Below are positions 3,001 through 64,000 of a stretch of 64,000 bases of DNA, piece after piece. The notes under the pieces are model-generated. The model worked only from the letters and a program-made list of their open reading frames with translations, made no database searches and had not been told where the DNA came from. This stretch comes from Nemertoderma westbladi (Eukaryota > Animalia > Xenacoelomorpha): the NCBI GenBank assembly GCA_032718475.1, contig JAUCBJ010007946.1:1-64000 (forward strand), given 5' to 3'. The first letter of the stretch is position 1. Each line of letters opens with the position of its first letter. The position numbers and the translations under genes are program-made.

Positions 3001-6000
3001 GCTCCTACATAATAATCCGCTGTTACTGTAGATTTCCAAACTTGCATAATTCCTGACATATTTAGCTTGGTTCGGAACTTGGGTTGTCCAGCGAAGATGT
3101 CTTCGGCTAGTTCTTTATCAATGAATGTTCCTGTGCTACCGGAGTCAAGGAGGGCGTTCACTACATAACTCCTTTTAGGTCCGTGAACCCTTACCTGAAC
3201 CACAGGAAACTCTCGGATCCCTACATTGGAAGATGGCGCTTTCCAAGATGGTTGTCGATCAGAAGTAGTTAGAGTGAGGTCGCTGTCTGTATCTTTTTCA
3301 TATGTGAGTGCTCGATACACTGCGGTATTTATCATGTAACAGGATTCGTTTTCGTCGGAGAACTCGTCTGTATAGAATCCTTCCATCTCAGATTGATCAG
3401 TGTCGTTCACATCACTGAATTGGACATGTAGCTCGGAATCACTTACCTGATTCGGACTATTTCGCTCGAATTCAGCGTGCAACAAGATATGATGTTTCGC
3501 ACCACACTTTGCACACCTTATGTCAGAGAAACAGGTACGCCGTTGGTGTCCTTGTCTGAGGCAATTATAACATAACCGCTTATCCCACATGACTTCTCGT
3601 CTCTCCGATAATGATTTCTTCAGGAATTCATCACACATATTCAAACGGTGGGTCCCGTCGCATAGCGCACATTTCGGTTTGATGTTACTTACCTTATTTT
3701 GGGTAACATTTTGCACTCTCGTTCTTTCTTCGGGCTTTCTCACCTGAATTCTCTTGGGAGACGTAGGAGGAGTTTTTCTTACCTGTTCTCTCTGGTCATT
3801 GGATCGAGACTTAAATTTACTTCCCTGTTCATTAGGTTTTTTATTGACATAATAAGATCTTTCAGTGTCTTTCCCGCTATCCTCCCCTTGGGAAGCTTGG
3901 CTTTCGCCGTCGTCGGTATAACACACTGGTGTTACCTTTCTTCTGGAGACGGGTTTCTCACTTACCTTGTTTTCCGATGTCTTCTCTCTGGACTGCTTTA
4001 TGAGCTGTAATTTCACTTCGCCATCCAAGAATGTCATGAGATCAGTCATGGTAGGGTCTCGTTGTTGTTGTTCCATCATGTATAACACTTTCTTGTCCCA
4101 GCGTGTACCTACTCCACCCTTCGGTAAAGTAGAAGCCACTGCTCTAATAACCATAGCACTCTGATACTCATGAGACTTACCTAGCCAATCTAATTGTCTG
4201 CAGATCTCCTGAATTTCATCGGAAAACTCTATAATCCCGTTGCTAATAAACTTTCGGGGCGCTACCAACTTTGCATACAAATACCCAGCTATGTTATTCC
4301 TATTACCATACCTGATGTTTAGTGTATCCCAAACTTGTCTTAATCCGTCTGGATGTCCAATAAACTTTAATGCCATTAACTTGGGAGATCCTTCCAAGCA
4401 CTCGATGAGGAATCTAAGTTTCTCTCCATTAGATAGTACAGAGTTCTGTATGTTATCTTTGTAATATTCATTAAAAGGTAACCATTTCATCTCATCTCCA
4501 TTGAACTTGACGATCTCTCCCACCTTTACCGCTTGCCGGGCTTCGGTTCTAGCCATTTGGCGCGTAAAACTTTCTTGGGCCATCGTGTTATTTAATATCG
4601 AGTTATCGGTATATAAATTTCTCGGATTATGATCAGGTCTATAGGGAATGTCATTATCAACAGGTCTATAATTACCCTTAATAGGGTTCACTATAGGAGT
4701 TTCTACTTCGCTAGCAGTATATATGCGTGTAGGCTCCACACCTTGCGCATGAGATACTTCAGACCTAACAGGTTGACACATTGCTACTGAGGGTGGTGGT
4801 ATACCCCTTTGTGTATTTACTAATTTATCGCGTTCTAGCGCGATACTTTGCTGCACTTCTTGCAACTCTAGTCTACTTTCCCTTACTGTGCCCTTGAATT
4901 GCTGAACAGTCTCCTGCATCTGCCCGAGCAGGAGATCCATCCCCCGCCGTCTCTCGTCCACCCATTCGACCGCAGAAGCGGGAGTCGCCAATGATGTAGC
5001 GGGCGGACGAGGGACAACGGGTGACAAATCATGAATATTTCGCTCGGGGTCCAGGACCTGAACTGTCTCATGGGCTGTTCTACTGGGCACAGGTAGCTTG
5101 GTGCTGTGCAGAGGGAATTTAGAGGTAACTTCAGGGAGCACAGGTGTGTCTATCACCGAAGGGGTGATTTCAAGAACAGGCCTAATTATTTCAGGCTCAT
5201 CTACTATAGTAGGGAGTCTTTCTATTTTAATTATTTGGTCTGTGGGTTCTGTACTACCTAAGTTGGTGTTATTTAGTTGCCTTCTAACAGCTGGAGGCAA
5301 ATCAGGCAATTTCTGACGGTGGGATGTTCTTCTACGTCTGCTGAGACGAGATCTATTTCCTTTGCCTTCAGTATCGGTGGTATCGCCTTCCTCAGATGAT
5401 GTATATCCCTGTCTTTTGGGAGTAGATCGATTCATCATCTGCATATTACTAGCTGTTAACTGTTTATTTATGCAGTCTTGATTCTCCTGAATGATTTCCA
5501 ATTCTAATTGGATGGTTTCTTCAGCCGCTCTCCGTTCTGCTTCTGCCACTGCCTCTGCCGCTTTTCTTTCCGCTTCGGCCGCTGCCATTGCCGCCTTTCT
5601 TTCTGCTTCTGCCGCTTTTGCCTCTGCCGCTGCCTCTGCCGCTGCCGCTTTTGCCTCTGCCGCTGCCTCTGCCGCTTTTGCCTCTGCCGCTGCCTCTGCC
5701 GCTGCCGCTTTTCTTTCTGCTTCTGCAGCTGCCACTGCTGCTGCTACTGCCGCTGCCTTTCTGTCTTCTATACGTTTTTTCTTTACTTGTTCTTCTTGGA
5801 CTCTTGTGATGCGGAGTTGTTCATCAAATTTAGCCTGGTTCGCAGCCCTCATTTCCACATCGATGGCATCCAACACACGCTGAGTTCCTTCACTATTAGG
5901 GCTAAGTCCATCTAACCTTCTCCTCAACTCTTCATCACCTAAAAAACGTTGATAGTCTGACAGATAGATGTCAATGGCATCCCTCTTATGCGGCTTCTCT

Positions 6001-6932
6001 GCCGTCGCTTCACTTTCCACTTGGGAAAAAGTAGCGTCTGTTGATTCTCCATGGGTTGAGCGCTCCTCTAGCTGGGCTTTCCACTGAGCCGTTCCTTGAA
6101 CCAGGAGACTCACCCGTTGAAACCAAGTCTTTACAGCAACTTGCAACGACGTGTCTTGTCTTCGTTTAGAAGCCTCCTCAAAGGCTGATAAGATTAGCCT
6201 GATTCGCAGAATTCTTTCTCTAACTTGATAAAGCAGTTGTCCCTGCTCTTGAGGTCCTTGTGGTTGTTGAAACAGTTGTCCTTTTACTCGCTCCATAGAG
6301 CTGAAGAATCCCTGTGCGTATCCGGCCGCGGACCTCTTCCACACAGCTGGATCTATGGTTTCCTTGGCTACTCCCATCCAGTGTATGTCTTCCCAGGCAG
6401 CTTCTGATAAATCAAACGGGAGTCCGGGTCCGGGGAAGTTCCATTGCGACTCGACAATAGACTTCAGTTCTTCCCTTGTGTATCCCGCATAACTATCTTT
6501 AGTTGATCGCTGACTTCTCGCCCAATCGATCTGGTGTTCTTCCACCGCAATCAATAACCTAGTGAGTACGGCTGCAGGAAGGATGAGAAGGGGATCCGAA
6601 TAAACCGCATCCGTCATCTTTGCTCCGCGCTCAAGTGTCAGCTCTACAGTATCCTCACTACTGGAGCTGTCGGGCCGCTGAGAAATAAGTTCTTGGCTCG
6701 CGGGTTGTTGCTGTTCTGCTGCTTCTTGGTCCCGCTTGACCTGAGCTCGAGTGCCTATGATAGACCTACGATGTTGGACCAGCCTAGGTTCTGTTATTAC
6801 TACTGGAGGGATGACCTTCCTCACAGTGGGAGGTGAACTGAACTTATGACTAGATGGTTCTACACCTCTATCTGAGTCGCAGATAGTTACATCTAATAAA
6901 CTGTCTGACAGGTTCTGCTTAGTATCAGACAT
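1..6932 (-). CDS. BEL/Pao gag-pol polyprotein (Gag with Cys/His knuckles, aspartic protease, RT, RNase H), 3'-partial
   Basis: ATG at 6932 is in frame with RT IYMDDNL (~1658). Motifs read by eye: KFNGDEMKWLPF (~4490); CALCDGTHRLNMC, CYNCLRQGHQRRTC, CAKCGAKHHILLH (3480-3675); ALLDSGSTGTF (~3140); HVFGDASD (~1120); VPRAEL; VYWTDA; WRHCPGTINPADIASRG (~780). Probably absent from the ORF track because it runs off the edge without a stop. Not every codon was checked. Confidence 0.9.
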   Translation of the reverse strand, partial: MSDTKQNLSDSLLDVTICDSDRGVEPSSHKFSSPPTVRKVIPPVVITEPRLVQHRRSIIGTRAQVKRDQEAAEQQQPASQELISQRPDSSSSEDTVELTLERGAKMTDAVYSDPLLILPAAVLTRLLIAVEEHQIDWARSQRSTKDSYAGYTREELKSIVESQWNFPGPGLPFDLSEAAWEDIHWMGVAKETIDPAVWKRSAAGYAQGFFSSMERVKGQLFQQPQGPQEQGQLLYQVRERILRIRLILSAFEEASKRRQDTSLQVAVKTWFQRVSLLVQGTAQWKAQLEERSTHGESTDATFSQVESEATAEKPHKRDAIDIYLSDYQRFLGDEELRRRLDGLSPNSEGTQRVLDAIDVEMRAANQAKFDEQLRITRVQEEQVKKKRIEDRKAAAVAAAVAAAEAERKAAAAEAAAEAKAAEAAAEAKAAAAEAAAEAKAAEAERKAAMAAAEAERKAAEAVAEAERRAAEETIQLELEIIQENQDCINKQLTASNMQMMNRSTPKRQGYTSSEEGDTTDTEGKGNRSRLSRRRRTSHRQKLPDLPPAVRRQLNNTNLGSTEPTDQIIKIERLPTIVDEPEIIRPVLEITPSVIDTPVLPEVTSKFPLHSTKLPVPSRTAHETVQVLDPERNIHDLSPVVPRPPATSLATPASAVEWVDERRRGMDLLLGQMQETVQQFKGTVRESRLELQEVQQSIALERDKLVNTQRGIPPPSVAMCQPVRSEVSHAQGVEPTRIYTASEVETPIVNPIKGNYRPVDNDIPYRPDHNPRNLYTDNSILNNTMAQESFTRQMARTEARQAVKVGEIVKFNGDEMKWLPFNEYYKDNIQNSVLSNGEKLRFLIECLEGSPKLMALKFIGHPDGLRQVWDTLNIRYGNRNNIAGYLYAKLVAPRKFISNGIIEFSDEIQEICRQLDWLGKSHEYQSAMVIRAVASTLPKGGVGTRWDKKVLYMMEQQQRDPTMTDLMTFLDGEVKLQLIKQSREKTSENKVSEKPVSRRKVTPVCYTDDGESQASQGEDSGKDTERSYYVNKKPNEQGSKFKSRSNDQREQVRKTPPTSPKRIQVRKPEERTRVQNVTQNKVSNIKPKCALCDGTHRLNMCDEFLKKSLSERREVMWDKRLCYNCLRQGHQRRTCFSDIRCAKCGAKHHILLHAEFERNSPNQVSDSELHVQFSDVNDTDQSEMEGFYTDEFSDENESCYMINTAVYRALTYEKDTDSDLTLTTSDRQPSWKAPSSNVGIREFPVVQVRVHGPKRSYVVNALLDSGSTGTFIDKELAEDIFAGQPKFRTKLNMSGIMQVWKSTVTADYYVGALSTPQDELGEHSIRSVKLVAIKNFATTQADLYNWDEDESIQHLKIPRFQTDYPGVQILIGQNAHEALETLEKRPTQPQPLQTYAVRTRVGWYLTGPSRRTLRERLPQELVCQVSEWEDDTSEGDDLTEGIPYSSDNDDVHQLFDEENTIDLLKENEAWQNQVNLCQLLYPSEREAYNDELNDVIERCNAKTRDEHAVRFFTQEAVEPNSYDKALSVEEERAKQIQETTTRFLKDQGRYEVGLPFRKREPKFINNRPLAEKRIAQLHRRLTANSSAKAMYQTQLEKFISKGYAERVPEETPVTERTYYLTHHYVPKPGKPHEVRVVFDGSALYMGQSLNSELLPGPNLLQSLLGILLRLRQYSIAFASDIEGMFLQVKVLDRDRDSLRFLWWPEGDLNQKPVEYWMTIQAFGIISSPSNACSVVRTTAEDNREAFSKEVIDNIKRDIYMDDNLKSLPSVEEAIEVAKGTVECLKRGGFRLTKFTSNSREFLESIPAEDRGAKDLDLIKDDLPETKTLGLKWDTERDILFFQLKQRDNPVRTKRICLSILSTYFVPLGFISPVILIARSLVQQMWLENHSWDDPLKGELLKKWMKWEDSLPAIEDFIISRSYFGHVLPTYSYQLHVFGDASDMGIGIVAYLRVETPDGIKVALVTSKALINNKLKVPRAELKAALYATAIGRNVTEQIDYPLEKTVYWTDALLVLEYITNEVCQFSVFVTNRVAIILSRTTMDQWRHCPGTINPADIASRGATPKELVNTPEWLGGPDFLYREEEEWPPHLTTAEIRQAKGAEKVKPKTRASKSKLFKPAVDLSVLFTSGDDALDQKPTATTKEVLEIRDRDWKSGIPDIAQGLSPLLQRVIRHYSSWNRLCKAVTYLKRCFHHRYSGTKTNSDDAPSTSARVHVVKDLPKYKISDRFLKEKISYQEHDETNKQMLRLLQCYEDSDKYFLLLRNPQMRLRDRFSSTMIDGLIRVGGRLTNAPLSFDTKFPILIRNLDIQIK

Positions 6933-8249
6933 GTTTGTGTGTACAGTTGAATGCCTACTGCTATATTACAGTCTGAGCAAGTCTAGTAATTCAGTATTAA
7001 CTGCTAGCCTAGTAATTAATTACCGATACTGCTACTCAGTGTAGCGCGATATATATAATATATTAGAATACCGGTATGCTTATAGTATATATAACTATAT
7101 AAGTTTTATTACAGACTAGGTTTATCACAGAATACCGGTATAATTTTAGCACAAATATATATAAATATATAATAGGCCTATCGGGAATACCGGTATACAG
7201 CTTACAGTTTGTAGTATATATAATTCTGGACTAGAATTAATTACAAGTACAGGTATAATTTCAGCCTAAATTTATAGAAATAAAGATAATAGGCCTATCG
7301 TAAATACCGGTATATCAATTATTTTAAATAATTGAATTTCTGAATTTTAGGGTTACTTGGTTACTTTACTTACTTTATTACCGTTATTTGAGCAGTAGTC
7401 CAACTGATATTGAGACCTAATGGTTGTATGGTAGGCCTACTATTTATAAATCGTTAGATTTGATTTATAATATATATACCCGTTTTAATGGGTTTTGTCA
7501 ATGTTTGAAATAAATGTTATTATTTCTGGGGAGTAATTACTACACAAAGCGGTGCGCTTTCAGTGAAGTGTTACTTATAGGACACTAAAACAAATAATGC
7601 TAATTTACCTAAGTTACTTAATACTACAAATTACGTACAATTCGGGTGAGATTACAATCTCTAAATAAACACAAAAATTTACAAAAAACACAAAATACGA
7701 ATTTTTAGGGTAATTTTACAAGAAGTCTACAAACCAGCCTACCAAAGGGTTAGAAATCTGGTTATTACAACGGACAGGGTTCTACGGTATTTGAAAATAA
7801 TAAGTAGTAGTAAATACACTGCGTTGTCCAGATAAGAAAATACCACCGCCTGACGACCTATAGCCGTATCGCTATAGGTTCTACGTTATGTATGACGGAG
7901 TGTTCCTACCTAGAAGTTAATAGAGCTAATCGAACGTGCCTATCAACCACTTTACAACACAAATATAATGCCTACACTAATTACTTTCGGAAAGCACTGT
8001 ACACTAAACCCTAAATTAGGTACGAGTACTTGTACAACAGATAATCAGTAGTTAAATATACTTGAACAGCTAAAAGAACCACGGCATCTGCTGGAGTGAC
8101 CGGTGCACAAAATCACCAGTCTTTACCTACGCCAAGCAGCCCGTGTAGTACCGGGGTTAATTTAACTATAACGGTATGTATAACAAACACAATTACTGTA
8201 GGAACAAACTTGGGGAATGAATGTTGCGGATAATCGCATAAACTCTGAA

Positions 8250-16170: not shown

Positions 16171-16476
16171 TTTAATTTTTTTACAATTTTCCTATGTTGT
16201 TTAACTCAAGACCAAAACCTAAGTCGATTTCCAGAAGAAGAAAAATCATGTATTACTTATTATATTGCAAATTGGTCTATTAATATTTATTGTATAAAAC
16301 CTAAATAAGGTTGGAAATGTCTTTTTAATTTTTTTACAATTTTCCTATGTTGTTTAACTCAAGACCAAAACCTAAGTCGATTTCCAGAAGAAGAAAAATC
16401 ATGTATTACTTATTATATTGCAAATTGGTCTATTAATATTTATTGTATAAAACCTAAATAAGGTTGGAAATGTCTT
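16171..16476. repeat. Tandem duplication, 2 x 153 bp
   Basis: TTTAATTTTTTTACAATTTTCCTATG...GGTTGGAAATGTCT at 16171 and 16324. Confidence 0.92.
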
Positions 16477-33678: not shown

Positions 33679-33687
33679 GAATCATTA

Positions 33688-33911
33688 CTTTCAGGTCTTC
33701 AGGTTGTTTTTATTTATTTTCAGGTCTTCAGGTTGTTTTTATTTATTTTCAGGTCTTCAGGTTGTTTTTATTTATTTTCAGGTCTTCAGGTTGTTTTTAT
33801 TTATTTTCAGGTCTTCAGGTTGTTTTTATTTATTTTCAGGTCTTCAGGTTGTTTTTATTTATTTTCAGGTCTTCAGGTTGTTTTTATTTATTTTCAGGTC
33901 TCCAAGTTGTT
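33688..33911 (+). repeat. 29-bp tandem repeat of the exon 5 splice acceptor (7 copies plus the real junction)
   Basis: Unit CAG|GTCTTCAGGTTGTTTTTATTTATTTT at 33692, 33721...33866; real junction CAG|GTCTCCAAGTTGTT at 33895. Confidence 0.95.
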
Positions 33912-34050
33912 CTTAAGTCTATCTTATGTGCCTTAGCTCCACTATTACAGATCGCCTTGCTGCTTCTTTTCGTTATTTTTATATTTGCTATCATGGGAAT
34001 GGAATTGTTTATGCCATATTTTCATAATGCTTGCTACAATAATCAAACAA
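33898..34050 (+). CDS. Cav2: Cav2 exon 5 (IS5)
   Basis: [38 protein letters not shown]; donor GTGAGT. Confidence 0.93.
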
Positions 34051-36859: not shown

Positions 36860-37360
36860 CACCGACAAGCAACATTAGCGGGCAGATTATATAATATGCA
36901 ATCCAAAGTTAATTCACGGTAACAAATTGCAGAAAACAAGAAAAATAATCAGCACACAACAGCTAAATCAAACTATCAGCTAACACTAACTGAAACTGGT
37001 AAGAGAGAAAAAACAGTGAATAACAGACTCAATACAGTGAATAAGTCACCCACATTCAAGCACAAAGCTTCTACCATTAACCCTATTAAAACCGGGGGTG
37101 GGTCAATATCCACCGACAAGCAACATTAGCGGGCAGATTATATAATATGCAATCCAAAGTTAATTCACGGTAACAAATTGCAGAAAACAAGAAAAATAAT
37201 CAGCACACAACAGCTAAATCAAACTATCAGCTAACACTAACTGAAACTGGTAAGAGAGAAAAAACAGTGAATAACAGACTCAATACAGTGAATAAGTCAC
37301 CCACATTCAAGCACAAAGCTTCTACCATTAACCCTATTAAAACCGGGGGTGGGTCAATAT
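36860..37360. repeat. Tandem duplication, 2 x 251 bp
   Basis: CACCGACAAGCAACATTAGCGGG...GGTCAATAT at 36860 and 37111. Confidence 0.93.
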
Positions 37361-38480
37361 GACCCCCCCCCCCCGTGGTTTTTTTATTATAATTCTGAAA
37401 CAAACGCAGTTGGGAATCTGAAATTTTATGACTTTTCCTAAAAATCTATTGTCTTCCTAGTAGTGAAAACCGTTTTCAAAAATATTGGGTACTTTTCGAG
37501 TTATAGCACCATTTTTTAACCCTACTTTTGGCACTTTTTTGAGACGTTTTTTGAAAATTACATTTCATTAAATATGAATTGTAACATCTCTATTTTTGAT
37601 TTACACCGGTTTTGTGGTGTTAGAAATTTGATGGAATTCATATCAATTGATTTAGAAATTTCAAACTTGTATTTTTCGGCGGGTACCAAATTTTGGTGCC
37701 AGCACCAAACTTTGAAATAAGACAATTTTGTAAATTGAACGTTTGAAACTTGTTTTTTACGCAATTGGGGTTTTTTGGGTTTCTGGATTCGATGAAATAT
37801 ATACGAGTTGCACCAAGCGTATCAAACTTGTATTTTTCGGTGCTGTGTGCAAATTTTGGTGCTAGCACGAAATTTTGAAAATCCATTCAATAGATAAAAT
37901 TGCTTGTGACAATTTATTTCTTGCGTTTTAGAGGTTTATGGCTGTTCTGAATTCAATGGAAAATATAATTATCGAACTAGACATCTCAAACTTGTATTTT
38001 TCGGATGTGGGTGCAAAATGTGGTGCTAGCACCAAATTTTGAAAACCATCAAATATATCAATTGATTGTGTCACCTTGTTTCTTGCGTTATACGGGTTTG
38101 TGATGGTTCTGAATTCAATGGAATCAGTAAAAATTTCATAAGAGTTCTCAAACTTGTATTTTTCGCCGGTGGGTGAAAATTGTTGTGCCAGCACCAAATT
38201 TTGGAAAATATGCAAATTGATAAGTAGATAGTATCACCTTGTTTCTTGCGTTATACGGGTTTATGAGGGTCCTGAATCCGATGGAATCAATAAAAACAGC
38301 ACTGGACATCGCAAACTTGTACTTTTTGGTGATGGGTACGAAATTTGGTGCTAGCACCAAAATTTGCCAAATTAAGCCGAAAAATACAAGTAGCAATGAT
38401 CTGGCATATTAGAAATGTATTCCATTAGAATCAGCGCCCTCGAAAACCTGAAAATGTGAATTTATAGCATCGTATAAGTG
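37332..38480. mobile_element. piggyBac-like non-autonomous fragment with ~120-bp internal subrepeats
   Basis: Starts TTAA|CCCT. AAACTTGTATTTTTC...GGTGCTAGCACCAAA recurs about every 120-165 bp over 37660-38370. No right TIR found. Confidence 0.5.
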
Positions 38481-40177: not shown

Positions 40178-40364
40178 GTTATTAACAACATAAATGATAG
40201 CTGGAAAGTTATTGAAAGTAGAGGGTATTGAAACAGTCTGTAAGCCTTTGCTGAGAGAGCTACTAAACCTAACACATTACTCAAGCTACAAAACTCATAC
40301 TCAAACGTAGTACTCAAAACTCATACGTAATAAGTATTTCATTCAAGTATTTTAACAACTTCGA

Positions 40365-40775
40365 CGGCGGGGCTAGCTCAGTTGGTTGAGTGCTGGGCTT
40401 ACACATTCATTGGTTGCTGATTCTAGCCCTGCATCGTTCTCAGCCTTTCAAAGACTGGGTTCAATAAAATGAAAATGAGATCGACAAGAAAGCTGTGCCG
40501 TGTTTATTGTGGCATGAACAATGAACACATCTCCAATCAGTCTCTATAGAACATTGGAGGTGTTTCATTTGTCTCCCCTAGCTTGACACTTGAACGAAGC
40601 CGCCTCCGCTTTGCAGGACATTGCTTTAGACATAAGGGCTAACCGGTGCATAATCGTATGCTTTGGGTAACTGATGGAGTGAATAAACATGGCAGGCAGC
40701 CAGTCCATGACTTTTTTGAGACGCATCTCAAGGACCCTCTGGCTTTAAAAATTGCGGATGACATGCGGACACAAA
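40365..40775 (+). mobile_element. Degenerate tRNA-like head followed by an RTE-like LINE 3' fragment
   Basis: TAGCTCAGTTGG A-box-like sequence at ~40374; HISNQSL and SRLRFAGHCFR peptides at 40525-40630. Confidence 0.5.
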
Positions 40776-41808
40776 ATTTAGTACACTAACGGTACTCATA
40801 TTAAATGCTCTTTAATGCATTACTTTTTAATCATACCATAAATACCTCCTAACTTCAATCTATGTATTTAAAAGATAAAACCCGTATATGACATTTAATT
40901 GAAAAAAATATAATTTTAAAATAAATCAGTATAATCAACAATTATTTATTAATGATTAATTATAATGTCCCAAGTCATTTTACTTGAATTATGTGGCATC
41001 TGCAACCAAACAACAGTCAGACATTGCCATCTGTCACACATGCTAAATTGAATTGCAGCTATATTTATATTTATTAGTTGGGGGTGGATATTTATCCGAA
41101 ATATTAATTCCTGACACATAGAAATCAGTGAGGCACTTTGATGAAGAGTACAAGTCATTAGCTGGAAGAATATATGCGCCACGCGGTGTTTCGGATAATA
41201 AGGTTGTCTGCAATTCGTCCCAGAACACACTGTCTTCCAATCAGAAATTCATTTATGTCAAGTGCTTATTAGACTCCAGAGATGAGGACAACCCAGTAGC
41301 TTCTGGACTTTGCCAACACACTCTAGTTTTTCAACCAATACCTATCGACCATATGGTTGTGTGGTTGCACTTCTCAACAGTAGTGGTGTAGCTTGCGCTT
41401 TCCAAGATACTTATTTTATGTGACACCATCGATTTTTTCCCCAAATCGATTCCATTTCCTCTCCATTTACATAGACTGAAAATTAGAATCAAACAGAATG
41501 ATAGTACATACCGTCTCAATTAGATGCATTAGTACGATGCATGAGTACAGCGGTCGTGATTAGCTTAATCCGTAAAATCTCTAGCATGGGTCGGAATGAT
41601 ATTCTGTGGCTACCGGCATAGTGTATACTCTTAGAATTACTTTTATTACAGGAAGGGATCTAGGGACCTTCCTGTAATAAATGTATCATAACAAACACCT
41701 CGAAAAAAATACAGCTTGCCAAAACCTTGTTACTATCAATAATAAAAATCAGGGGCTAATAAAATGGCAGCTGGCTTTGAAATTAATACTCCATATCTCA
41801 AGAACCTG

Positions 41809-41861
41809 TGGCCTAGTGGTTGTTGTCTCGGCTTCCACCTCGAGGTCCTAGGTTCGAATCC
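41809..41861 (+). promoter_or_regulatory. Type 2 RNA Pol III internal promoter (A and B boxes), repeated in each unit
   Basis: A box TGGCCTAGTGG at 41809-41819; B box GGTTCGAATCC at 41851-41861. Confidence 0.8.
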
Positions 41862-41912
41862 GACACCACGCTGATGAGACCCAGTAAGGTCGAAACGCGT
41901 ACGAGGTTTGGA
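41859..41912 (+). ncRNA. Type I hammerhead ribozyme, copy 1 (one stem I mismatch)
   Basis: ACCACG-CTGATGA-GACC(CAGTAA)GGTC-GAAA-CGCG-TA-CGAGGT; predicted cut after 41901. Confidence 0.88.
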
Positions 41913-42270
41913 GAGATATGAGATATTAATTTCAAGAAAAATTACGCGATTCCTAAATTTGTACACTACCCGGTTATAAAGTACGCATGTGATGGGATTA
42001 GTCCTACAATTGCGCCAATAAAAGATAAGTTATTTTCGGTAAAATAAACTTATCATTCGAGGTTAAGACCCCTAGATCCCTTCCTGTAATAAATGTATCA
42101 TAACAAACACCTCGAAAAAAATACAGCTTGCCAAAACCTTGTTACTATCAATAATAAAAATCAGGGGCTAATAAAATGGCAGCTGGCTTTGAAATTAATA
42201 CTCCATATCTCAAGAACATGTGGCCTAGTGGTTGTTGTCTCGGCTTCCACCTCGAGGTCCTAGGTTCGAA

Positions 42271-42324
42271 TCCGACACCACGCTGATGAGACCCAGTAAG
42301 GTCGAAACGCGTACGTGGTTTGGA
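42271..42324 (+). ncRNA. Type I hammerhead ribozyme, copy 2
   Basis: CTGATGA at 42283; perfect stem I ACCACG/CGTGGT. Confidence 0.92.
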
Positions 42325-42681
42325 GAGATATGAGATATTAATTTCAGAAAAATTACGCGATTCCTAAATTTGTACACTACCCGGTTATAAAGTACGCATG
42401 TGATGGGATTAGTCCTACAATTGCGCCAATAAAAGATAAGTTATTTTCGGTAAAATAAACTTATCATTCGAGGTTAAGACCCCTAGATCCCTTCCTGTAA
42501 TAAATGTATCATAACAAACACCTCGAAAAAAATACAGCTTGCCAAAACCTTGTTACTATCAATAATAAAAATCAGGGGCTAATAAAATGGCAGCTGGCTT
42601 TGAAATTAATACTCCATATCTCAAGAACCTGTGGCCTAGTGGTTGTTGTCTCGGCTTCCACCTCGAGGTCCTAGGTTCGAA

Positions 42682-42735
42682 TCCGACACCACGCTGATGA
42701 GACCCAGTAAGGTCGAAACGCGTACGTGGTTTGGA
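42682..42735 (+). ncRNA. Type I hammerhead ribozyme, copy 3
   Basis: CTGATGA at 42694. Confidence 0.92.
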
Positions 42736-43092
42736 GAGATATGAGATATTAATTTCAAGAAAAATTACGCGATTCCTAAATTTGTACACTACCCGGTTAT
42801 AAAGTACGCATGTGATGGGATTAGTCCTACAATTGCGCCAATAAAAGATAAGTTATTTTCGGTAAAATAAACTTATCATTCGAGGTTAAGACCCCTAGAT
42901 CCCTTCCTGTAATAAATGTATCATAACAAACACCTCGAAAAAATACAGCTTGCCAAAACCTTGTTACTATCAATAATAAAAATCAGGGGCTAATAAAATG
43001 GCAGCTGGCTTTGAAATTAATACTCCATATCTCAAGAACCTGTGGCCTAGTGGTTGTTGTCTCGGCTTCCACCTCGAGGTCCTAGGTTCGAA

Positions 43093-43146
43093 TCCGACAC
43101 CACGCTGATGAGACCCAGTAAGGTCGAAACGCGTACGTGGTTTGGA
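43093..43146 (+). ncRNA. Type I hammerhead ribozyme, copy 4
   Basis: CTGATGA at 43105. Confidence 0.92.
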
Positions 43147-43503
43147 GAGATATGAGATATTAATTTCAAGAAAAATTACGCGATTCCTAAATTTGTACAC
43201 TACCCGGTTATAAAGTACGCATGTGATGGGATTAGTCCTACAATTGCGCCAATAAAAGATAAGTTATTTTCGGTAAAATAAACTTATCATTCGAGGTTAA
43301 GACCCCTAGATCCCTTCCTGTAATAAATGTATCATAACAAACACCTCGAAAAAATACAGCTTGCCAAAACCTTGTTACTATCAATAATAAAAATCAGGGG
43401 CTAATAAAATGGCAGCTGGCTTTGAAATTAATACTCCATATCTCAAGAACCTGTGGCCTAGTGGTTGTTGTCTCGGCTTCCACCTCGAGGTCCTAGGTTC
43501 GAA

Positions 43504-43557
43504 TCCGACACCACGCTGATGAGACCCAGTAAGGTCGAAACGCGTACGTGGTTTGGA
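43504..43557 (+). ncRNA. Type I hammerhead ribozyme, copy 5
   Basis: CTGATGA at 43516. Confidence 0.92.
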
Positions 43558-43915
43558 GAGATATGAGATATTAATTTCAAGAAAAATTACGCGATTCCTA
43601 AATTTGTACACTACCCGGTTATAAAGTACGCATGTGATGGGATTAGTCCTACAATTGCGCCAATAAAAGATAAGTTATTTTCGGTAAAATAAACTTATCA
43701 TTCGAGGTTAAGACCCCTAGATCCCTTCCTGTAATAAATGTATCATAACAAACACCTCGAAAAAAATACAGCTTGCCAAAACCTTGTTACTATCAATAAT
43801 AAAAATCAGGGGCTAATAAAATGGCAGCTGGCTTTGAAATTAATACTCCATATCTCAAGAACCTGTGGCCTAGTGGTTGTTGTCTCGGCTTCCACCTCGA
43901 GGTCCTAGGTTCGAA

Positions 43916-43969
43916 TCCGACACCACGCTGATGAGACCCAGTAAGGTCGAAACGCGTACGTGGTTTGGA
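43916..43969 (+). ncRNA. Type I hammerhead ribozyme, copy 6
   Basis: CTGATGA at 43928. Confidence 0.92.
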
Positions 43970-44327
43970 GAGATATGAGATATTAATTTCAAGAAAAATT
44001 ACGCGATTCCTAAATTTGTACACTACCCGGTTATAAAGTACGCATGTGATGGGATTAGTCCTACAATTGCGCCAATAAAAGATAAGTTATTTTCGGTAAA
44101 ATAAACTTATCATTCGAGGTTAAGACCCCTAGATCCCTTCCTGTAATAAATGTATCATAACAAACACCTCGAAAAAAATACAGCTTGCCAAAACCTTGTT
44201 ACTATCAATAATAAAAATCAGGGGCTAATAAAATGGCAGCTGGCTTTGAAATTAATACTCCATATCTCAAGAACCTGTGGCCTAGTGGTTGTTGTCTCGG
44301 CTTCCACCTCGAGGTCCTAGGTTCGAA

Positions 44328-44381
44328 TCCGACACCACGCTGATGAGACCCAGTAAGGTCGAAACGCGTACGTGGTTTGGA
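44328..44381 (+). ncRNA. Type I hammerhead ribozyme, copy 7
   Basis: CTGATGA at 44340. Confidence 0.92.
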
Positions 44382-44740
44382 GAGATATGAGATATTAATT
44401 TCAAGAAAAATTACGCGATTCCTAAATTTGTACACTACCCGGTTATAAAGTACGCATGTGATGGGATTAGTCCTACAATTGCGCCAATAAAATATAAGTT
44501 ATTTTCGGTAAAATAAACTTATCATTCGAGGTTAAGACCCCTAGATCCCTTCCTGTAATAAATGTATCATAACAAACACCTCGAAAAAAATACAGCTTGC
44601 CAAAACCTTGTTACTATCACATAATAAAAATCAGGGGCTAATAAAATGGCAGCTGGCTTTGAAATTAATACTCCATATCTCAAGAACCTGTGGCCTAGTG
44701 GTTGTTGTCTCGGCTTCCACCTCGAGGTCCTAGGTTCGAA

Positions 44741-44794
44741 TCCGACACCACGCTGATGAGACCCAGTAAGGTCGAAACGCGTACGTGGTTTGGA
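44741..44794 (+). ncRNA. Type I hammerhead ribozyme, copy 8
   Basis: CTGATGA at 44753. Confidence 0.92.
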
Positions 44795-45248
44795 GAGATA
44801 TGAGATATTAATTTCAAGAAAAATTACGCGATTCCTAAATTTGTACACTACCCGGTTATAAAGTACGCATGTGATGGGATTAGTCCTACAATTGCGCCAA
44901 TAAAAGATAAGTTATTTTCGGTAAAATAAACTTATCATTCGAGGTTAAGACCCCTAGATCCCTTCCTGTAATAAATGTATCATAACAAACACCTCGAAAA
45001 AAATACAGCTTGCCAAAACCTTGTTACTATCAATACTTAGAATTACTGACATCGTCACTTGACATAGGCAAGCAAGGTGACTCGCCTACATTATGTAACA
45101 ATAGGAATCATATTGATCACTATGGAGCCAGGCGTAGAGTGACCTAGATACACATTGTTAGACCACTTAGCTTATACATATTGCTAACTGTATTATGTTG
45201 ATGTTCTAATATTGTTCGAGATTATTTATTACGTCGTTTCTGTTGCAG

Positions 45249-45404
45249 ACGAGATTGATCTTAACGAGTCTAAGATGACCGACGCCGAGAAGGCGATGTA
45301 CCGCGCCCAGAGAGGTTTAAGCAAAGCTCACATATCAATGGATGACGATGATGAAGATGAGGAAATGGACACAGATATTGAGGAAAACGATAACATTGAA
45401 ATAG
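45249..45404 (+). CDS. Cav2: Cav2 exon 9 (acidic I-II linker)
   Basis: DEIDLNESKMTDAEK...DDDDEDEE...IEI; phase 1 at both ends, matching neighbours. Confidence 0.85.
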
Positions 45405-50054: not shown

Positions 50055-50186
50055 GTATTGGAAATCGTTAAGGAATTTAGTCGTCTCGTTGCTCAACTCA
50101 ATACGCGCTATATTATCTCTGCTGTTTCTTCTCTTTCTTTTCATCGTAATATTCGCTCTACTGGGGATGCAGATATTTGGAGGGAG
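50055..50186 (+). CDS. Cav2: Cav2 exon 13 (IIS5)
   Basis: [43 protein letters not shown]. Confidence 0.94.
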
Positions 50187-53100
50187 GTTGGTTTCATTAT
50201 ATTTGGAGGGAGGTTGGTTTCATTATATTTGGAGGGAGGTTGGTTTCATTATATTTGGAGGGAGGTTGGTTTCATTATATTTGGAGGGAGGTTGGTTTCA
50301 TTATATTTGGAGGGAGGTTGGTTTCATTATATTTGGAGGGAGGTTGGTTTCATTATATTTGGAGGGAGGTTGGTTTCATTATATTTGGAGGGAGGTTGGT
50401 TTCATTATATTTGGAGGGAGGTTGGTTTCATTATATTGGGAGGGAGGTTGGTTTCATTATATTGGGAGGGAGGTTGGTTTCATTATATTTGGAGGGAGGT
50501 TGGTTTCATTGTATTTGGAGGGAGGTTGGTTTCATTATATTGGGAGGGAGGTTGGTTTCATTATATTGGGAGGGGGGTTGGTTTCATTATATTTGGAGGG
50601 AGGTTGGTTTCATTATATTTGGAGGGAGGTTGGTTTCATTATATTGGGAGGGAGGTTGGTTTCATTATATTTGGAGGGAGGTTGGTTTCATTATATTTGG
50701 AGGGAGGTTGGTTTCATTATATTTGGAGGGAGGTTGGTTTCATTATATTGGGAGGGAGGTTGGTTTCATTATATTTGGAGGGAGGTTGGTTTCATTATAT
50801 TGGGAGGGAGGTTGGTTTCATTATATTTGGAGGGAGGTTGGTTTCATTATATTTGGAGGGAGGTTGGTTTCATTATATTTGGAGGGAGGTTGGTTTCATT
50901 ATATTTGGAGGGAGGTTGGTTTCATTATATTTGGAGGGAGGTTGGTTTCATTATATTGGGAGGGAGGTTGGTTTCATTATATTGGGAGGGAGGTTGGTTT
51001 CATTATATTGGGAGGGAGGTTGGTTTCATTATATTGGGAGGGAGGTTGGTTTCATTATATTTGGAGGGAGGTTGGTTTCATTATATTGGGAGGGAGGTTG
51101 GTTTCATTATATTTGGAGGGAGGTTGGTTTCATTATATTTGGAGGGAGGTTGGTTTCATTATATTTGGAGGGAGGTTGGTTTCATTATATTTGGAGGGAG
51201 GTTGGTTTCATTATATTGGGAGGGAGGTTGGTTTCATTATATTGGGAGGGAGGTTGGTTTCATTATATTGGGAGGGAGGTTGGTTTCATTATATTGGGAG
51301 GGAGGTTGGTTTCATTATATTTGGAGGGAGGTTGGTTTCATTATATTTGGAGGGAGGTTGGTTTCATTATATTGGGAGGGAGGTTGGTTTCATTATATTT
51401 GGAGGGAGGTTGGTTTCATTATATTGGGAGGGAGGTTGGTTTCATTATATTTGGAGGGAGGTTGGTTTCATTATATTTGGAGGGAGGTTGGTTTCATTAT
51501 ATTGGGAGGGAGGTTGGTTTCATTATATTGGGAGGGAGGTTGGTTTCATTATATTTGGAAGGGGGTTGGTTTCATTATATTTGGAGGGAGGTTGGTTTCA
51601 TTATATTTGGAGGGAGGTTGGTTTCATTATATTTGGAGGGAGGTTGGTTTCATTATATTGGGAGGGAGGTTGGTTTCATTATATTTGGAGGGAGGTTGGT
51701 TTCATTATATTTGGAGGGAGGTTGGTTTCATTGTATTTGGAGGGAGGTTGGTTTCATTGTATTTGGAGGGAGGTTGGTTTCATTATATTTGGAGGGAGGT
51801 TGGTTTCATTATATTTGGAGGGAGGTTGGTTTCATTATATTTGGAGGGAGGTTGGTTTCATTATATTTGGAGGGAGGTTGGTTTCATTATATTTGGAGGG
51901 AGGTTGGTTTCATTATATTTGGAGGGAGGTTGGTTTCATTATATTGGGAGGGAGGTTGGTTTCATTATATTTGGAGGGAGGTTGGTTTCATTATATTTGG
52001 AGGGAGGTTGGTTTCATTATATTTGGAGGGAGGTTGGTTTCATTATATTTGGAGGGAGGTTGGTTTCATTATATTTGGAGGGAGGTTGGTTTCATTATAT
52101 TTGGAGGGAGGTTGGTTTCATTATATTTGGAGGGAGGTTGGTTTCATTATATTTGGAGGGAGGTTGGTTTCATTATATTTGGAGGGAGGTTGGTTTCATT
52201 ATATTTGGAGGGAGGTTGGTTTCATTATATTTGGAGGGAGGTTGGTTTCATTATATTTGGAGGGAGGTTGGTTTCATTATATTTGGAGGGAGGTTGGTTT
52301 CATTATATTTGGAGGGAGGTTGGTTTCATTATATTTGGAGGGAGGTTGGTTTCATTATATTTGGAGGGAGGTTGGTTTCATTATATTTGGAGGGAGGTTG
52401 GTTTCATTATATTTGGAGGGAGGTTGGTTTCATTATATTTGGAGGGAGGTTGGTTTCATTATATTTGGAGGGAGGTTGGTTTCATTATATTTGGAGGGAG
52501 GTTGGTTTCATTATATTTGGAGGGAGGTTGGTTTCATTATATTTGGAGGGAGGTTGGTTTCATTATATTTGGAGGGAGGTTGGTTTCATTATATTTGGAG
52601 GGAGGTTGGTTTCATTATATTTGGAGGGAGGTTGGTTTGTGAGCGGATTCAATTCCGCCGCATTACCCTCACAAAGTTGGGAAGTGGCACCTTTTCAGCA
52701 ATATTGGAGATACGAGATTGGCAATAACCAATCTCGTATCACAACCAACACCGGGGACAACACAACCCCAAAGCCACACACAAAGGGAGGTTAGAGGTCA
52801 AATCACCTCGGGAGAGGGAACAACCAGCAGGGGCCAACAGCAGGGGGGAAACACTCACAGAGAGGGGAGAGGCGTGAAGTAGATTATCAGCCAATAGGGG
52901 CGAGGGAGAGCATCCACTGGGTGAAAGGCCACAGCAGTGTAGGAGTAATAATCACATATATATTATGTTGCATTCAATTACCGGTTCAGTTATTTCAGTC
53001 ATCAGCTTGAGTGCAGACCGGTGACATCCTTCACCGTCACCGTCACCAATATATCCACACCTACCGGTATACAATACTGTTATTTTACTGCCATCAACTG

Positions 53101-60336: not shown

Positions 60337-60433
60337 GACGGACGTTGGTGGTAGCGCAGGTGGAATTAGATCTTTGCGGGTTTTAAGAGTTCTTCGGCCA
60401 CTGAAAACGATTAAACGGGTTCCCAAACTAAAG
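60337..60433 (+). CDS. Cav2: Cav2 exon 20 (IIIS4)
   Basis: [23 protein letters not shown]. Confidence 0.94.
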
Positions 60434-63400
60434 GTTGGTTATTATTTACGGGTTCCCAAACTAAAGGTTAGTTATTATTTACGGGTTCCCAAACTAAAGT
60501 TTAGTTATTATTTACGGGTTCCCAAACTAAAGGTGGGTTATTATTTACGGGTTCCCAAACTAAAGTTTGGTTATTATTTACGGGTTCCCAAACTAAAGGT
60601 TAGTTATTATTTACGGGTTCCCAAACTAAAGGTTAGTTATTATTTACGGGTTCCCAAACTAAAGGTGGGTTATTATTTACGGGTTCCCAAACTAAAGGTT
60701 AGTTATTATTTACGGGTTCCCAAACTAAAGTTTGGTTATTATATTTACGGGTTCCCAAACTAAGGGTTGGTTATTATTTACGGATTCCCAAACTAAAGGT
60801 TAGTTATTATTTACGGGTTCCCAAACTAAAGGTTGGTTATTATTTACGGGTTCCCAAACTAAAGTTTAGTTATTCTTTACGGGTTCCCAAACTAAAGGTT
60901 GGTTATTATTTACGGGTTCCCAAACTAAAGTTTGGTTATTATTTACGGGTTCCCAAACTAAGGGTTGGTTATTATTTACGGGTTCCCAAACTAAAGGTTG
61001 GTTATTATTTACGGGTTCCCAAACTAAAGTTTAGTTATTCTTTACGGGTTCCCAAACTAAAGGTTGGTTATTATTTACGGGTTCCCAAACTAAAGTTTGG
61101 TTATTATTTACGGGTTCCCAAACTAAGGGTTGGTTATTATTTACGGGTTCCCAAACTAAAGGTTGGTTATTATTTACGGGTTCCCAAACTAAGGTTTAGT
61201 TATTATTTACGGGTTCCCAAACTAAAGGTTAGTTATTATTTACGGGTTCCCAAACTAAAGTTTGGTTATTATTTACGGGTTCCCAAACTAAAGGTTGGTT
61301 ATTATATTTACGGGTTCCCAAACTAAAGGTTGGTTATTATTTACGGGTTCCCAAACTAAAGTTTAGTTATTATTTACGGGTTCCCAAACTAAAGGTTGGT
61401 TATTATATTTACGGGTTCCCAAACTAAAGGTTGGTTATTATTTACGGGTTCCCAAACTAAAGTTTGGTTATTATTTACGGGTTCCCAAACTAAAGGTTGG
61501 TTATTATTTACGGGTTCCCAAACTAAAGGTGGGTTATTATTTACGGGTTCCCAAACTAAAGTATAGTTATTATTTACGGGTTCCCAAACTAAAGGTTGGT
61601 TATTATATTTACGGGTTCCCAAACTAAAGGTGGGTTATTATTTACGGGTTCCCAAACTAAAGTATAGTTATTATTTACGGGTTCCCAAACTAAAGGTTGG
61701 TTATTATTTACGGGTTCCCAAACTAAAGGTTAGTTATTATTTACGGGTTCCCAAACTAAAGTTTGGTTATTATATTTACGGGTTCCCAAACTAAAGTTTG
61801 GTTATTATTTACGGGTTCCCAAACTAAAGGTTAGTTATTATTTACGGGTTCCCAAACTAAAGGTTAGTTATTATTTACGGGTTCCCAAACTAAAGGTTGG
61901 TTATTATTTACGGGTTCCCAAACTAAAGGTTAGTTATTATTTACGGGTTCCCAAACTAAAGTTTGGTTATTATATTTACGGGTTCCCAAACTAAAGGTTA
62001 GTTATTATATTTACGGGTTCCCAAACTAAAGTTTAGTTATTATTTACGGGTTCCCAAACTAAAGGTTGGTTATTATTTACGGGTTCCCAAACTAAAGGTT
62101 GGTTATTATTTACGGGTTCCCAAACTAAAGGTTGGTTATTATTTACGGGTTCCCAAACTAAAGGTTGGTTATTATATTTACGGGTTCCCAAACTAAAGGT
62201 TAGTTATTATATTTACGGGTTCCCAAACTAAAGTTTAGTTATTATTTACGGGTTCCCAAACTAAAGGTTGGTTATTATTTACGGGTTCCCAAACTAAAGG
62301 TTGGTTATTATTTACGGGTTCCCAAACTAAAGGTTGGTTATTATTTACGGGTTCCCAAACTAAAGGTTGGTTATTATATTTACGGGTTCCCAAACTAAAG
62401 GTTGGTTATTATTTACGGGTTCCCAAACTAAAGGTTGGTTATTATTTACGGGTTCCCAAACTAAAGGTTGGTTATTATTTACGGGTTCCCAAACTAAAGG
62501 TTGGTTATTATTTACGGGTTCCCAAACTAAAGGTTAGTTATTATTTACGGGTTCCCAAACTAAAGGTTGGTTATTATTTACGGGTTCCCAAACTAAATGT
62601 TAGTTATTATTTACGGGTTCCCAAACTAAAGGTTGGTTATTATTTACGGGTTCCTAAACTAAAGGTGGGTTATTATTTACGGATTCCCAAACTAAAGGTT
62701 GGTTATTATTTACGGGTTCCCAAACTAAAGGTTGGTTATTATATTTACGGGTTCCCAAACTAAAGGTTGGTTATTATTTACGGGTTCCCAAACTAAAGGT
62801 TAGTTATTATATTTACGGGTTCCCAAACTAAAGGTTGGTTATTATTTACGGGTTCCCAAACTAAAGGTTGGTTATTATATTTACGGGTTCCCAAACTAAA
62901 GGTTGGTTATTATTTACGGGTTCCCAAACTAAAGTTTGGTTATTATATTTACGGGTTCCCAAACTAAAGGTTGGTTATTATTTACGGGTTCCCAAACTAA
63001 AGGTTGGTTATTATTTACGGGTTCCCAAACTAAAGGTTGGTTATTATTTACGGGTTCCCAAACTAAAGGTTAGTTATTATTTACGGGTTCCCAAACTAAA
63101 GTTTAGTTATTATATTTACGGGTTCCCAAACTAAAGGTTAGTTATTATTTACGGGTTCCCAAACTAAAGGTTAGTTATTATTTACGGGTTCCCAAACTAA
63201 AGGTTAGTTATTATTTACGGGTTCCCAAACTAAAGGTTAGTTATTATTTACGGGTTCCCAAACTAAAGGTTGGTTATTATTTTCGGATTCCCAAACTAAA
63301 GGTTAGTTATTATTTACGGGTTCCCAAACTAAAGTATAGTTATTATTTACGGGTTCCCAAACTAAAGGTTAGTTATTATTTACGGGTTCCCAAACTAAAG

Positions 63401-64000
63401 TATAGTTATTATTTACGGGTTCCCAAACTAAAGGTTAGTTATTATTTACGGGTTCCCAAACTAAAGGTTGGTTATTATTTACGGGTTCCCAAACTAAAGG
63501 TGGGTTATTATTTACGGGTTCCCAAACTAAAGTATAGTTATTATTTACGGGTTCCCAAACTAAAGGTTGGTTATTATATTTACGGGTTCCCAAACTAAAG
63601 GTGGGTTATTATTTACGGGTTCCCAAACTAAAGTATAGTTATTATTTACGGGTTCCCAAACTAAAGGTTGGTTATTATTTACGGGTTCCCAAACTAAAGT
63701 TTGGTTATTATTTACGGATTCCCAAACTAAAGGTTAGTTATTATTTACGGGTTCCCAAACTAAAGTTTGGTTATTATATTTACGGGTTCCCAAACTAAAG
63801 TTTGGTTATTATTTACGGGTTCCCAAACTAAAGGTTAGTTATTATTTACGGGTTCCTAAACTAAAGGTGGGTTATTATTTACGGATTCCCAAACTAAAGG
63901 TTGGTTATTATTTACGGGTTCCCAAACTAAAGGTTGGTTATTATATTTACGGGTTCCCAAACTAAAGGTTGGTTATTATTTACGGGTTCCCAAACTAAAG
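60415..64000 (+). repeat. 33-bp (some 35-bp) tandem repeat of the exon 20 end plus donor, >100 copies, runs off the window
   Basis: Unit ACGGGTTCCCAAACTAAAG|GTTGGTTATTATTT (19 exon nt + 14 intron nt). Confidence 0.97.

Follow-up and report, generated by a model that had tools for sequence, protein, structure and literature searches.

A young tandem hammerhead array in a calcium-channel intron as a candidate product of rolling reverse transcription

How does a non-coding repeat that carries a putative self-cleaving ribozyme find its way back into a genome? The question is raised by a tandem array of hammerhead-bearing units in a 64,000-nucleotide stretch of Nemertoderma westbladi DNA (contig JAUCBJ010007946.1, positions 1 to 64,000 of the forward strand; hereafter the window). 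For animal retrozymes, genomic return is proposed and not demonstrated in the parts of the literature covered here. A sequence-only reading of the window had described the array as a retrozyme of eight units bounded by a target-site duplication (TSD), made by rolling reverse transcription of a circular RNA. Our analysis ranks the components of such a scenario: retro-insertion is near certain, Penelope-like machinery is likely and a circular template is less so. The reading that we prefer, in which a Penelope-like reverse transcriptase (RT) went round a 412-nt RNA circle and made the 3.4-kb, eight-unit insertion in a single step, has in our estimate a probability of roughly 0.55.

The array lies on the forward strand at 41667..45035 and comprises eight units, each 411-413 bp long, and a terminal redundancy of 75 bp, close to the ~412 bp and ~70 bp claimed before; Tandem Repeats Finder (TRF) gave 8.2 copies with 99% matches. 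Numbered from the predicted hammerhead cut (+n), it starts at unit position +178 and ends at +252, without a poly(A) tail. The 412-bp unit is non-coding and has a GC content of ~39%, below 50%. No open reading frame (ORF) of at least 120 aa was found over the array, the RT / GIY-YIG ORF of an autonomous Penelope-like element is absent from it, and no further unit fragments were found elsewhere in the window. When the eight units were aligned, six columns varied: three single-copy substitutions, two single-copy indels and one difference in an A run, which is one base shorter in the adjacent copies 4 and 5 only.

We next consider the motifs within the unit, with the coordinates of boxes and hammerhead given for copy 2. 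Each unit carries an A box (42221..42231, +) and a B box (42263..42273, +) of the type 2 RNA polymerase III (Pol III) promoter at a spacing of 42 nt, a pair present in 8/8 units and at no other site in the window. Among 20,000 shuffles of the unit, searched on either strand, the strict pair never occurred, and a looser pattern appeared in 24 of 40,000 strand reads. The label "tRNA-type" is used because of the two boxes and their spacing: neither ARAGORN nor Rfam called a tRNA, there is no full tRNA fold, and the Pol III promoter remains putative, from its motif match. A T4 run, one per unit (42444..42447, +), lies ~130 nt past the cut and is a possible Pol III terminator.

Directly after the B box, which overlaps the outer part of its stem I, comes a type I hammerhead motif (42271..42324, +) with its core at 42283-42289, a 4-bp stem II, a 6-bp inner stem I, a palindromic stem III at 42307-42312 and a predicted cut after 42313, the same site as predicted earlier. 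Core and stems are present in all eight units, as are the boxes, in agreement with the sequence-only reading; the one blemish is a T>A change at 41904 in copy 1, which disrupts one stem I pair. The combined B box-hammerhead pattern gave 8 matches against 0.00 expected. Against the Rfam model HH9 the hammerhead scores 26.6 bits (E 3.8e-4), short of the gathering score, which is 52, and at gathering level Rfam found no match anywhere in the window. A 23-nt imperfect inverted repeat (41777-41799 / 41913-41935, +, 87%) encloses promoter and ribozyme.

Folding predictions suggest how such a ribozyme could discriminate between multimers and monomers. For the circular monomer the predicted folding energy is -105.5 kcal/mol (z -4.8), a stability that none of 60 shuffles attained. 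In this fold stems I and II form with a probability of 0.76-1.0 and stem III with a probability of 0, and the 23-nt inverted repeat pairs both ends of the cut-to-cut monomer. For a two-unit RNA, the unconstrained minimum free energy structure is a double hammerhead (-139.8 kcal/mol) with a 6-bp palindromic stem III; the monomer stem III, if forced, costs 6.1 kcal/mol. Neighbouring hammerheads in a multimer are thus predicted to pair via stem III and cut, and a lone monomer is predicted to lack stem III. Because stem III forms in the two-unit RNA and not in the monomer, the predicted fold agrees with a gate in which multimers are cut by the hammerhead and monomeric circles are spared (PMC4209133). 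Motif and folding prediction therefore both favour a retrozyme with a dimer-type hammerhead, as had been claimed.

To judge whether the array is a genuine insertion, we turned to public sequencing runs. Ten were listed, of which seven contained part of the unit and five were compared with the window, all as assembled contigs. The block is flanked by 12-bp TSDs (left, 41630..41641; right, 45036..45047), the longest direct repeat found around it. In run X1, a 689-nt contig (depth 22.6) spans 41344-41641 and 45036-45399 with the 12-mer present once, that is, an empty site; loose letters ahead of 45036 in this contig match window positions 41600-41629. Since X1 carries an empty site with a single 12-mer, the block is a true, polymorphic insertion. 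Contigs of run X2 cross both filled junctions with zero differences; X2 may be the source of the window and is therefore not independent confirmation of them. The insertion is young, present in one individual and absent in another, so the empty allele directly bears out the recent TSD-flanked event previously proposed.

The left junction holds a feature that the sequence-only reading had overlooked. Between the TSD and the array lies a 24-nt inverted head (41642..41665, -), the reverse complement of unit +169 to +192 and an exact reverse complement of 42070-42093 (copy 1-2 coordinates); a single additional base separates it from the array. Head and forward start (+178) overlap by 15 nt, with 3-nt microhomologies at both joins, and an X2 junction contig spans the head without differences. 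Further inversion junctions occur in the family: both X1 and X2 show an opposite-strand joint, and X2 also has a loose end in reverse complement. Because the inverted 5' copy adjoins the TSD and no poly(A) is present, the footprint is of the Penelope type: partial tandems that carry an inverted 5' copy and lack poly(A) are typical of Penelope-like insertions (PMC8557442). The head thus points to Penelope-like machinery.

The array belongs to a repeat family that is very abundant in the DNA runs. Summed contig depth over the unit reached ~4-8 x 10^5 in X1 (flank 22) and 2-5.5 x 10^5 in X2 (flank 41), values that we read only as very high abundance, having rejected summed depth as a measure of copy number. 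Compared with the family majority, all array units share five substitutions (41723, 41726, 41824, 41849 and 41977) in addition to the A-run length. As these substitutions are common to all units, yet the units differ at just six columns, five of them single-copy, one template sequence is indicated. Across the family, as sampled by thousands of contigs, the ribozyme core is the majority state. A scan for the B box plus hammerhead pattern gave at least 143 loci (at least 120 metagenome stretches and 23 viral contigs) and no sequence relative of the unit among the 143 listed.

Expression of the family is suggested by run X6, labelled as DNA by a guess. A 2253-nt X6 contig joins 40177 to 45249 and is hence spliced, so X6 contains spliced RNA and the array sits in sense within an intron at 40178-45248. 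Unit depth in X6 is 2,400-7,200 as against 20.2 for the host mRNA; part of it comes from long contigs bearing a mere fragment of the unit, and a 0.2-0.5-fold carry-over of DNA could explain the rest. A head-to-tail joint is also present in X6, where in contigs a circle looks the same as a tandem. For the same reason a self-closing 441-nt contig (depth 13.8) of run X4, a run guessed to be RNA and labelled as another organism, was not used as evidence for a circle: a tandem or DNA carry-over looks identical. As a separate observation, X6 contigs of 1.8-1.9 kb and depth 400-1030 carry unit fragments (window 41826-42005) and are probably abundant mRNAs with pieces of the element in their untranslated regions.

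How could such an insertion arise? Transcription would start at the A/B-box promoter and pass the T4 run, or would come by host read-through; hammerheads in the multimer would then cut, and the monomers would be closed by an RtcB-type ligase. Circles have been shown for coral, mussel and axolotl retrozymes, with RtcB ligation shown in vitro, and Penelope elements have been proposed as helpers of non-LTR retrozymes, those lacking long terminal repeats (LTRs) (PMC7229834). A Penelope-like protein would nick AT-rich DNA, the nicks lying 12 bp apart, and each of the two DNA ends would prime within the A/C-rich part of the RNA. From +252 the first would be extended for about eight rounds; from +192 the second would be extended for 24 nt, to give the inverted head, which begins in the most A/C-rich region of the unit. 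The anole Penelope protein likewise cuts both strands of AT-rich DNA and extends both, and its RT starts internally, in an A/C-rich stem-loop (PMC11167929). Every insertion longer than one unit would keep a promoter upstream of two ribozymes and would be a new source. Two constraints on the template follow from the array itself. Eight intact cleavage junctions lie within the insertion, and a cut monomer could have templated them only as a circle or through seamless jumps; that all eight come from one haplotype is, beside the obstacles to a linear 3.4-kb RNA, what still favours a circle. Since the priming points +192 and +252 both lie past the T4 run, the template was not a T4-terminated transcript. 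Cleavage and circle formation are predictions here, and hammerhead activity is putative. The fuller picture of an active, self-contained RNA parasite, with Pol III multimers, dimer-gated cutting, ligated monomers and arrays made by a Penelope-like RT primed at both DNA ends, is a more tentative proposal, which we would sooner doubt than accept.

Several points weigh against one-step copying of a circle. Assembled contigs cannot reveal RNA ends or circles, and the copy number of eight is known from the window assembly alone. The hammerhead scores below the Rfam threshold, the T4 run in each unit could halt Pol III short of a full monomer, and the shorter A run common to copies 4 and 5 could mark an in-place duplication. 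The mid-unit ends of the array are no proof of a circle, because Penelope RT initiates internally. Randomly permuted ends were also rejected as such a proof, as the ends of the family seem to cluster and not to be freely permuted: among the 19 of 424 loose-end rows listed, the best-supported 3' ends fall at +188 (five X1 contigs), +192 (nine) and +197 (19, with 22 more in X2), and the inverted head begins at one of them, +192. These clustered ends lie close to the edge (42100) of the compared stretch, an edge effect produced by a common variant accounts for part of the +197 rows, and little can be seen of ends past ~+200, the array's own +252 among them. Finally, unprocessed RNA was the dominant substrate of the anole Penelope and ribozyme mutants inserted normally (PMC11167929). 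Rolling reverse transcription of a circle, as first proposed, is still the likeliest route, but the argument from mid-unit ends that had been offered for it is weak.

By analogy with the anole data, an uncut multimer is a real alternative. Taken together, a Penelope-type insertion from a linear template, whether the uncut multimeric transcript of a homogeneous donor array or cut monomers copied via seamless template jumps, seems to us unlikely though it deserves serious weight. The Penelope RT takes unprocessed RNA and starts internally, which would produce mid-unit ends without any circle (PMC11167929), and the rare variants of the array occur at low depth in X1, where the site is empty, so that a donor with this haplotype exists. 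Transcription of a 3.4-kb RNA would nevertheless have to read through eight T4 runs, and the RNA would have to stay uncut although its eight ribozymes are predicted to be active as dimers; the dimeric hammerheads of the axolotl cut efficiently (PMC7229834). We consider it distinctly improbable that a shorter retro-insertion, of just over one to two units, later grew to eight in place by unequal exchange or slippage. The 75-bp terminal redundancy would be long enough for unequal exchange to begin, an indel is common to copies 4 and 5, and local amplification is a model discussed for retrozymes (bioRxiv 10.64898/2026.07.22.740005); but the allele, being still polymorphic, is young, and in five of the six variable columns the change is confined to one copy, without any nesting. 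Least credible, and in our view very improbable, is an artefactual copy number created by the assembly, or entry of the block as DNA from an extrachromosomal rolling circle with the ribozyme as a passenger. Short-read contigs are too short for the array, and the junctions alone were confirmed, in a run that is possibly the source. Against this, the units bear distinct single-copy changes, the clean 12-bp TSD and the inverted head fit target-primed reverse transcription, and the ribozyme core is the majority state of the family.

With rolling reverse transcription of a circle retained as the preferred reading, the array is best classed as an Sm-alpha-like non-LTR retrozyme with a Penelope-type footprint. 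Sm-alpha and Sj-alpha of Schistosoma are tandem short interspersed elements (SINEs) with a Pol III-type promoter and a type I hammerhead (PMC6765202, PMC2770079). As in these elements, the promoter directly precedes a type I hammerhead, the units are tandem and copy number is high; once the monomer is cut, the promoter also falls at its 3' end, hence multimers alone would propagate. In S. mansoni, by contrast, the Sm-alpha head, compared by its description, reportedly derives from tRNA-Gln(TTG), while the loop here reads TCC by eye; the present host seems unlike a schistosome, and the accounts of Sm-alpha and Sj-alpha, in the parts available, mention neither an empty site nor an inverted head. 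Like metazoan non-LTR retrozymes, the array has a non-coding tandem unit within 150-450 bp, a GC content below 50%, a self-paired monomer, a canonical type I hammerhead with a short palindromic helix III, a TSD longer than 4 bp and no LTR (PMC7229834; PMC7761336; bioRxiv 10.64898/2026.07.22.740005). Those retrozymes are reportedly promoter-less (PMC7761336), whereas perfect A and B boxes occur in the unit; a recent account supports a Penelope origin of retrozymes and, in the part available, mentions neither tRNA nor Pol III (bioRxiv 10.64898/2026.07.22.740005). The partial tandem, inverted 5' copy, lack of poly(A), AT-rich target and an apparent clustering of 3' ends in A/C-rich RNA are shared with Penelope-like insertions (PMC8557442; PMC11167929; PMC4209133), but Penelope-like elements have an RT / GIY-YIG ORF and a minimal hammerhead with a long helix II in place of the canonical form found here.

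The literature covered, which takes in neither Repbase-type sources nor subscription journals, yielded no description of a hammerhead repeat with a tRNA promoter in anything but schistosomes. Because the combination of promoter and hammerhead is described for schistosomes and no look-alike of the unit occurs among the scanned loci, the design is already known and the family appears new; of the SINE-ribozyme hybrid that the sequence-only reading had considered as possibly new, it is thus the family and not the design to which novelty may apply. tRNA-derived SINEs have type 2 Pol III boxes spaced much as in a tRNA and a TSD, and are dispersed at high copy number, all of which the array family resembles. 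Unlike them, it has its boxes in mid-unit, lacks an A tail or a LINE-like (long interspersed element) 3' end, forms tandem multimers and contains a ribozyme.

A polymorphic eight-copy insertion with a TSD, an empty allele and an inverted head is a case on which rolling reverse transcription can be tested directly, and it links the schistosome Pol III hammerhead SINEs with the supposedly promoter-less retrozymes. Filled and empty alleles of the intron also provide a clean comparison for the effect of sense ribozyme arrays on a host mRNA. If the RNA-parasite proposal were true, the Sm-alpha design would represent a general class of circle-borne SINEs beyond schistosomes, and an allele that is present or absent would put eight sense ribozymes into a calcium-channel pre-mRNA.

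The host gene encodes a Cav2-type voltage-gated calcium channel (30236-60466, +), its exons being assigned by tblastn and Pfam; the array is held in sense by its GT-AG intron at 40178..45248 (+). Of 120 fetched channels, 17 were compared with all host exons and showed 45-64% identity. Two schistosomatid proteins were 59-60% identical to them, a cat-family or scorpion protein being at least as near (paralogues above 2000 aa left out). An exon search gave 1479 matches, the best 120 of which were all distant, the ESM Atlas returned generic channels, and two further exon searches gave no match. Judged from these sequence comparisons, the host has no close annotated relative in the exon searches, and a schistosome is improbable. 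Minisatellites that start at the borders of exons and reiterate the sequence of exon ends fill many introns of this gene (33685-33915, 50173-52638, 60415-64000).

The pattern scan also brought up metagenome and viral contigs, mostly tRNA arrays, in which a hammerhead-like core with stems I-III lies no more than a few bases downstream of an intact tRNA. Twelve of the 143 pattern-matched loci passed the stem filter, and ARAGORN placed a tRNA at the match in 10 of the 12; loci combining a tRNA with such a core are L009, L011, L016, L035, L057, L061, L116, L118, L134 and L137. None reached the Rfam gathering level at the match, and a literature search found no report of the arrangement. These cores may possibly serve ribozyme-aided 3' processing of tRNAs in phages, for which theta ribozymes are a parallel. 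In L043 (1027-1293) and L122 (1412-1460), tRNA arrays with GOLLD RNA, a hammerhead-like core follows tRNA-Gln, seemingly without stem III; L043 has a separate Rfam Hammerhead_1 match at 1027-1073.

Elsewhere in the window, an unbroken 2321-aa frame of a BEL/Pao LTR retrotransposon (Peptidase_A17, DUF1759) runs on the minus strand at 3-6965 and extends off the window. Tandem duplications of 251 bp (36860-37360) and 153 bp (16171-16476), both perfect at 100% identity, are either very recent or assembly artefacts. At 37631-38425, ~50-nt imperfect terminal inverted repeats flank four decayed 163-bp units with palindromic cores, an arrangement resembling a miniature inverted-repeat transposable element (MITE) or a Helitron.

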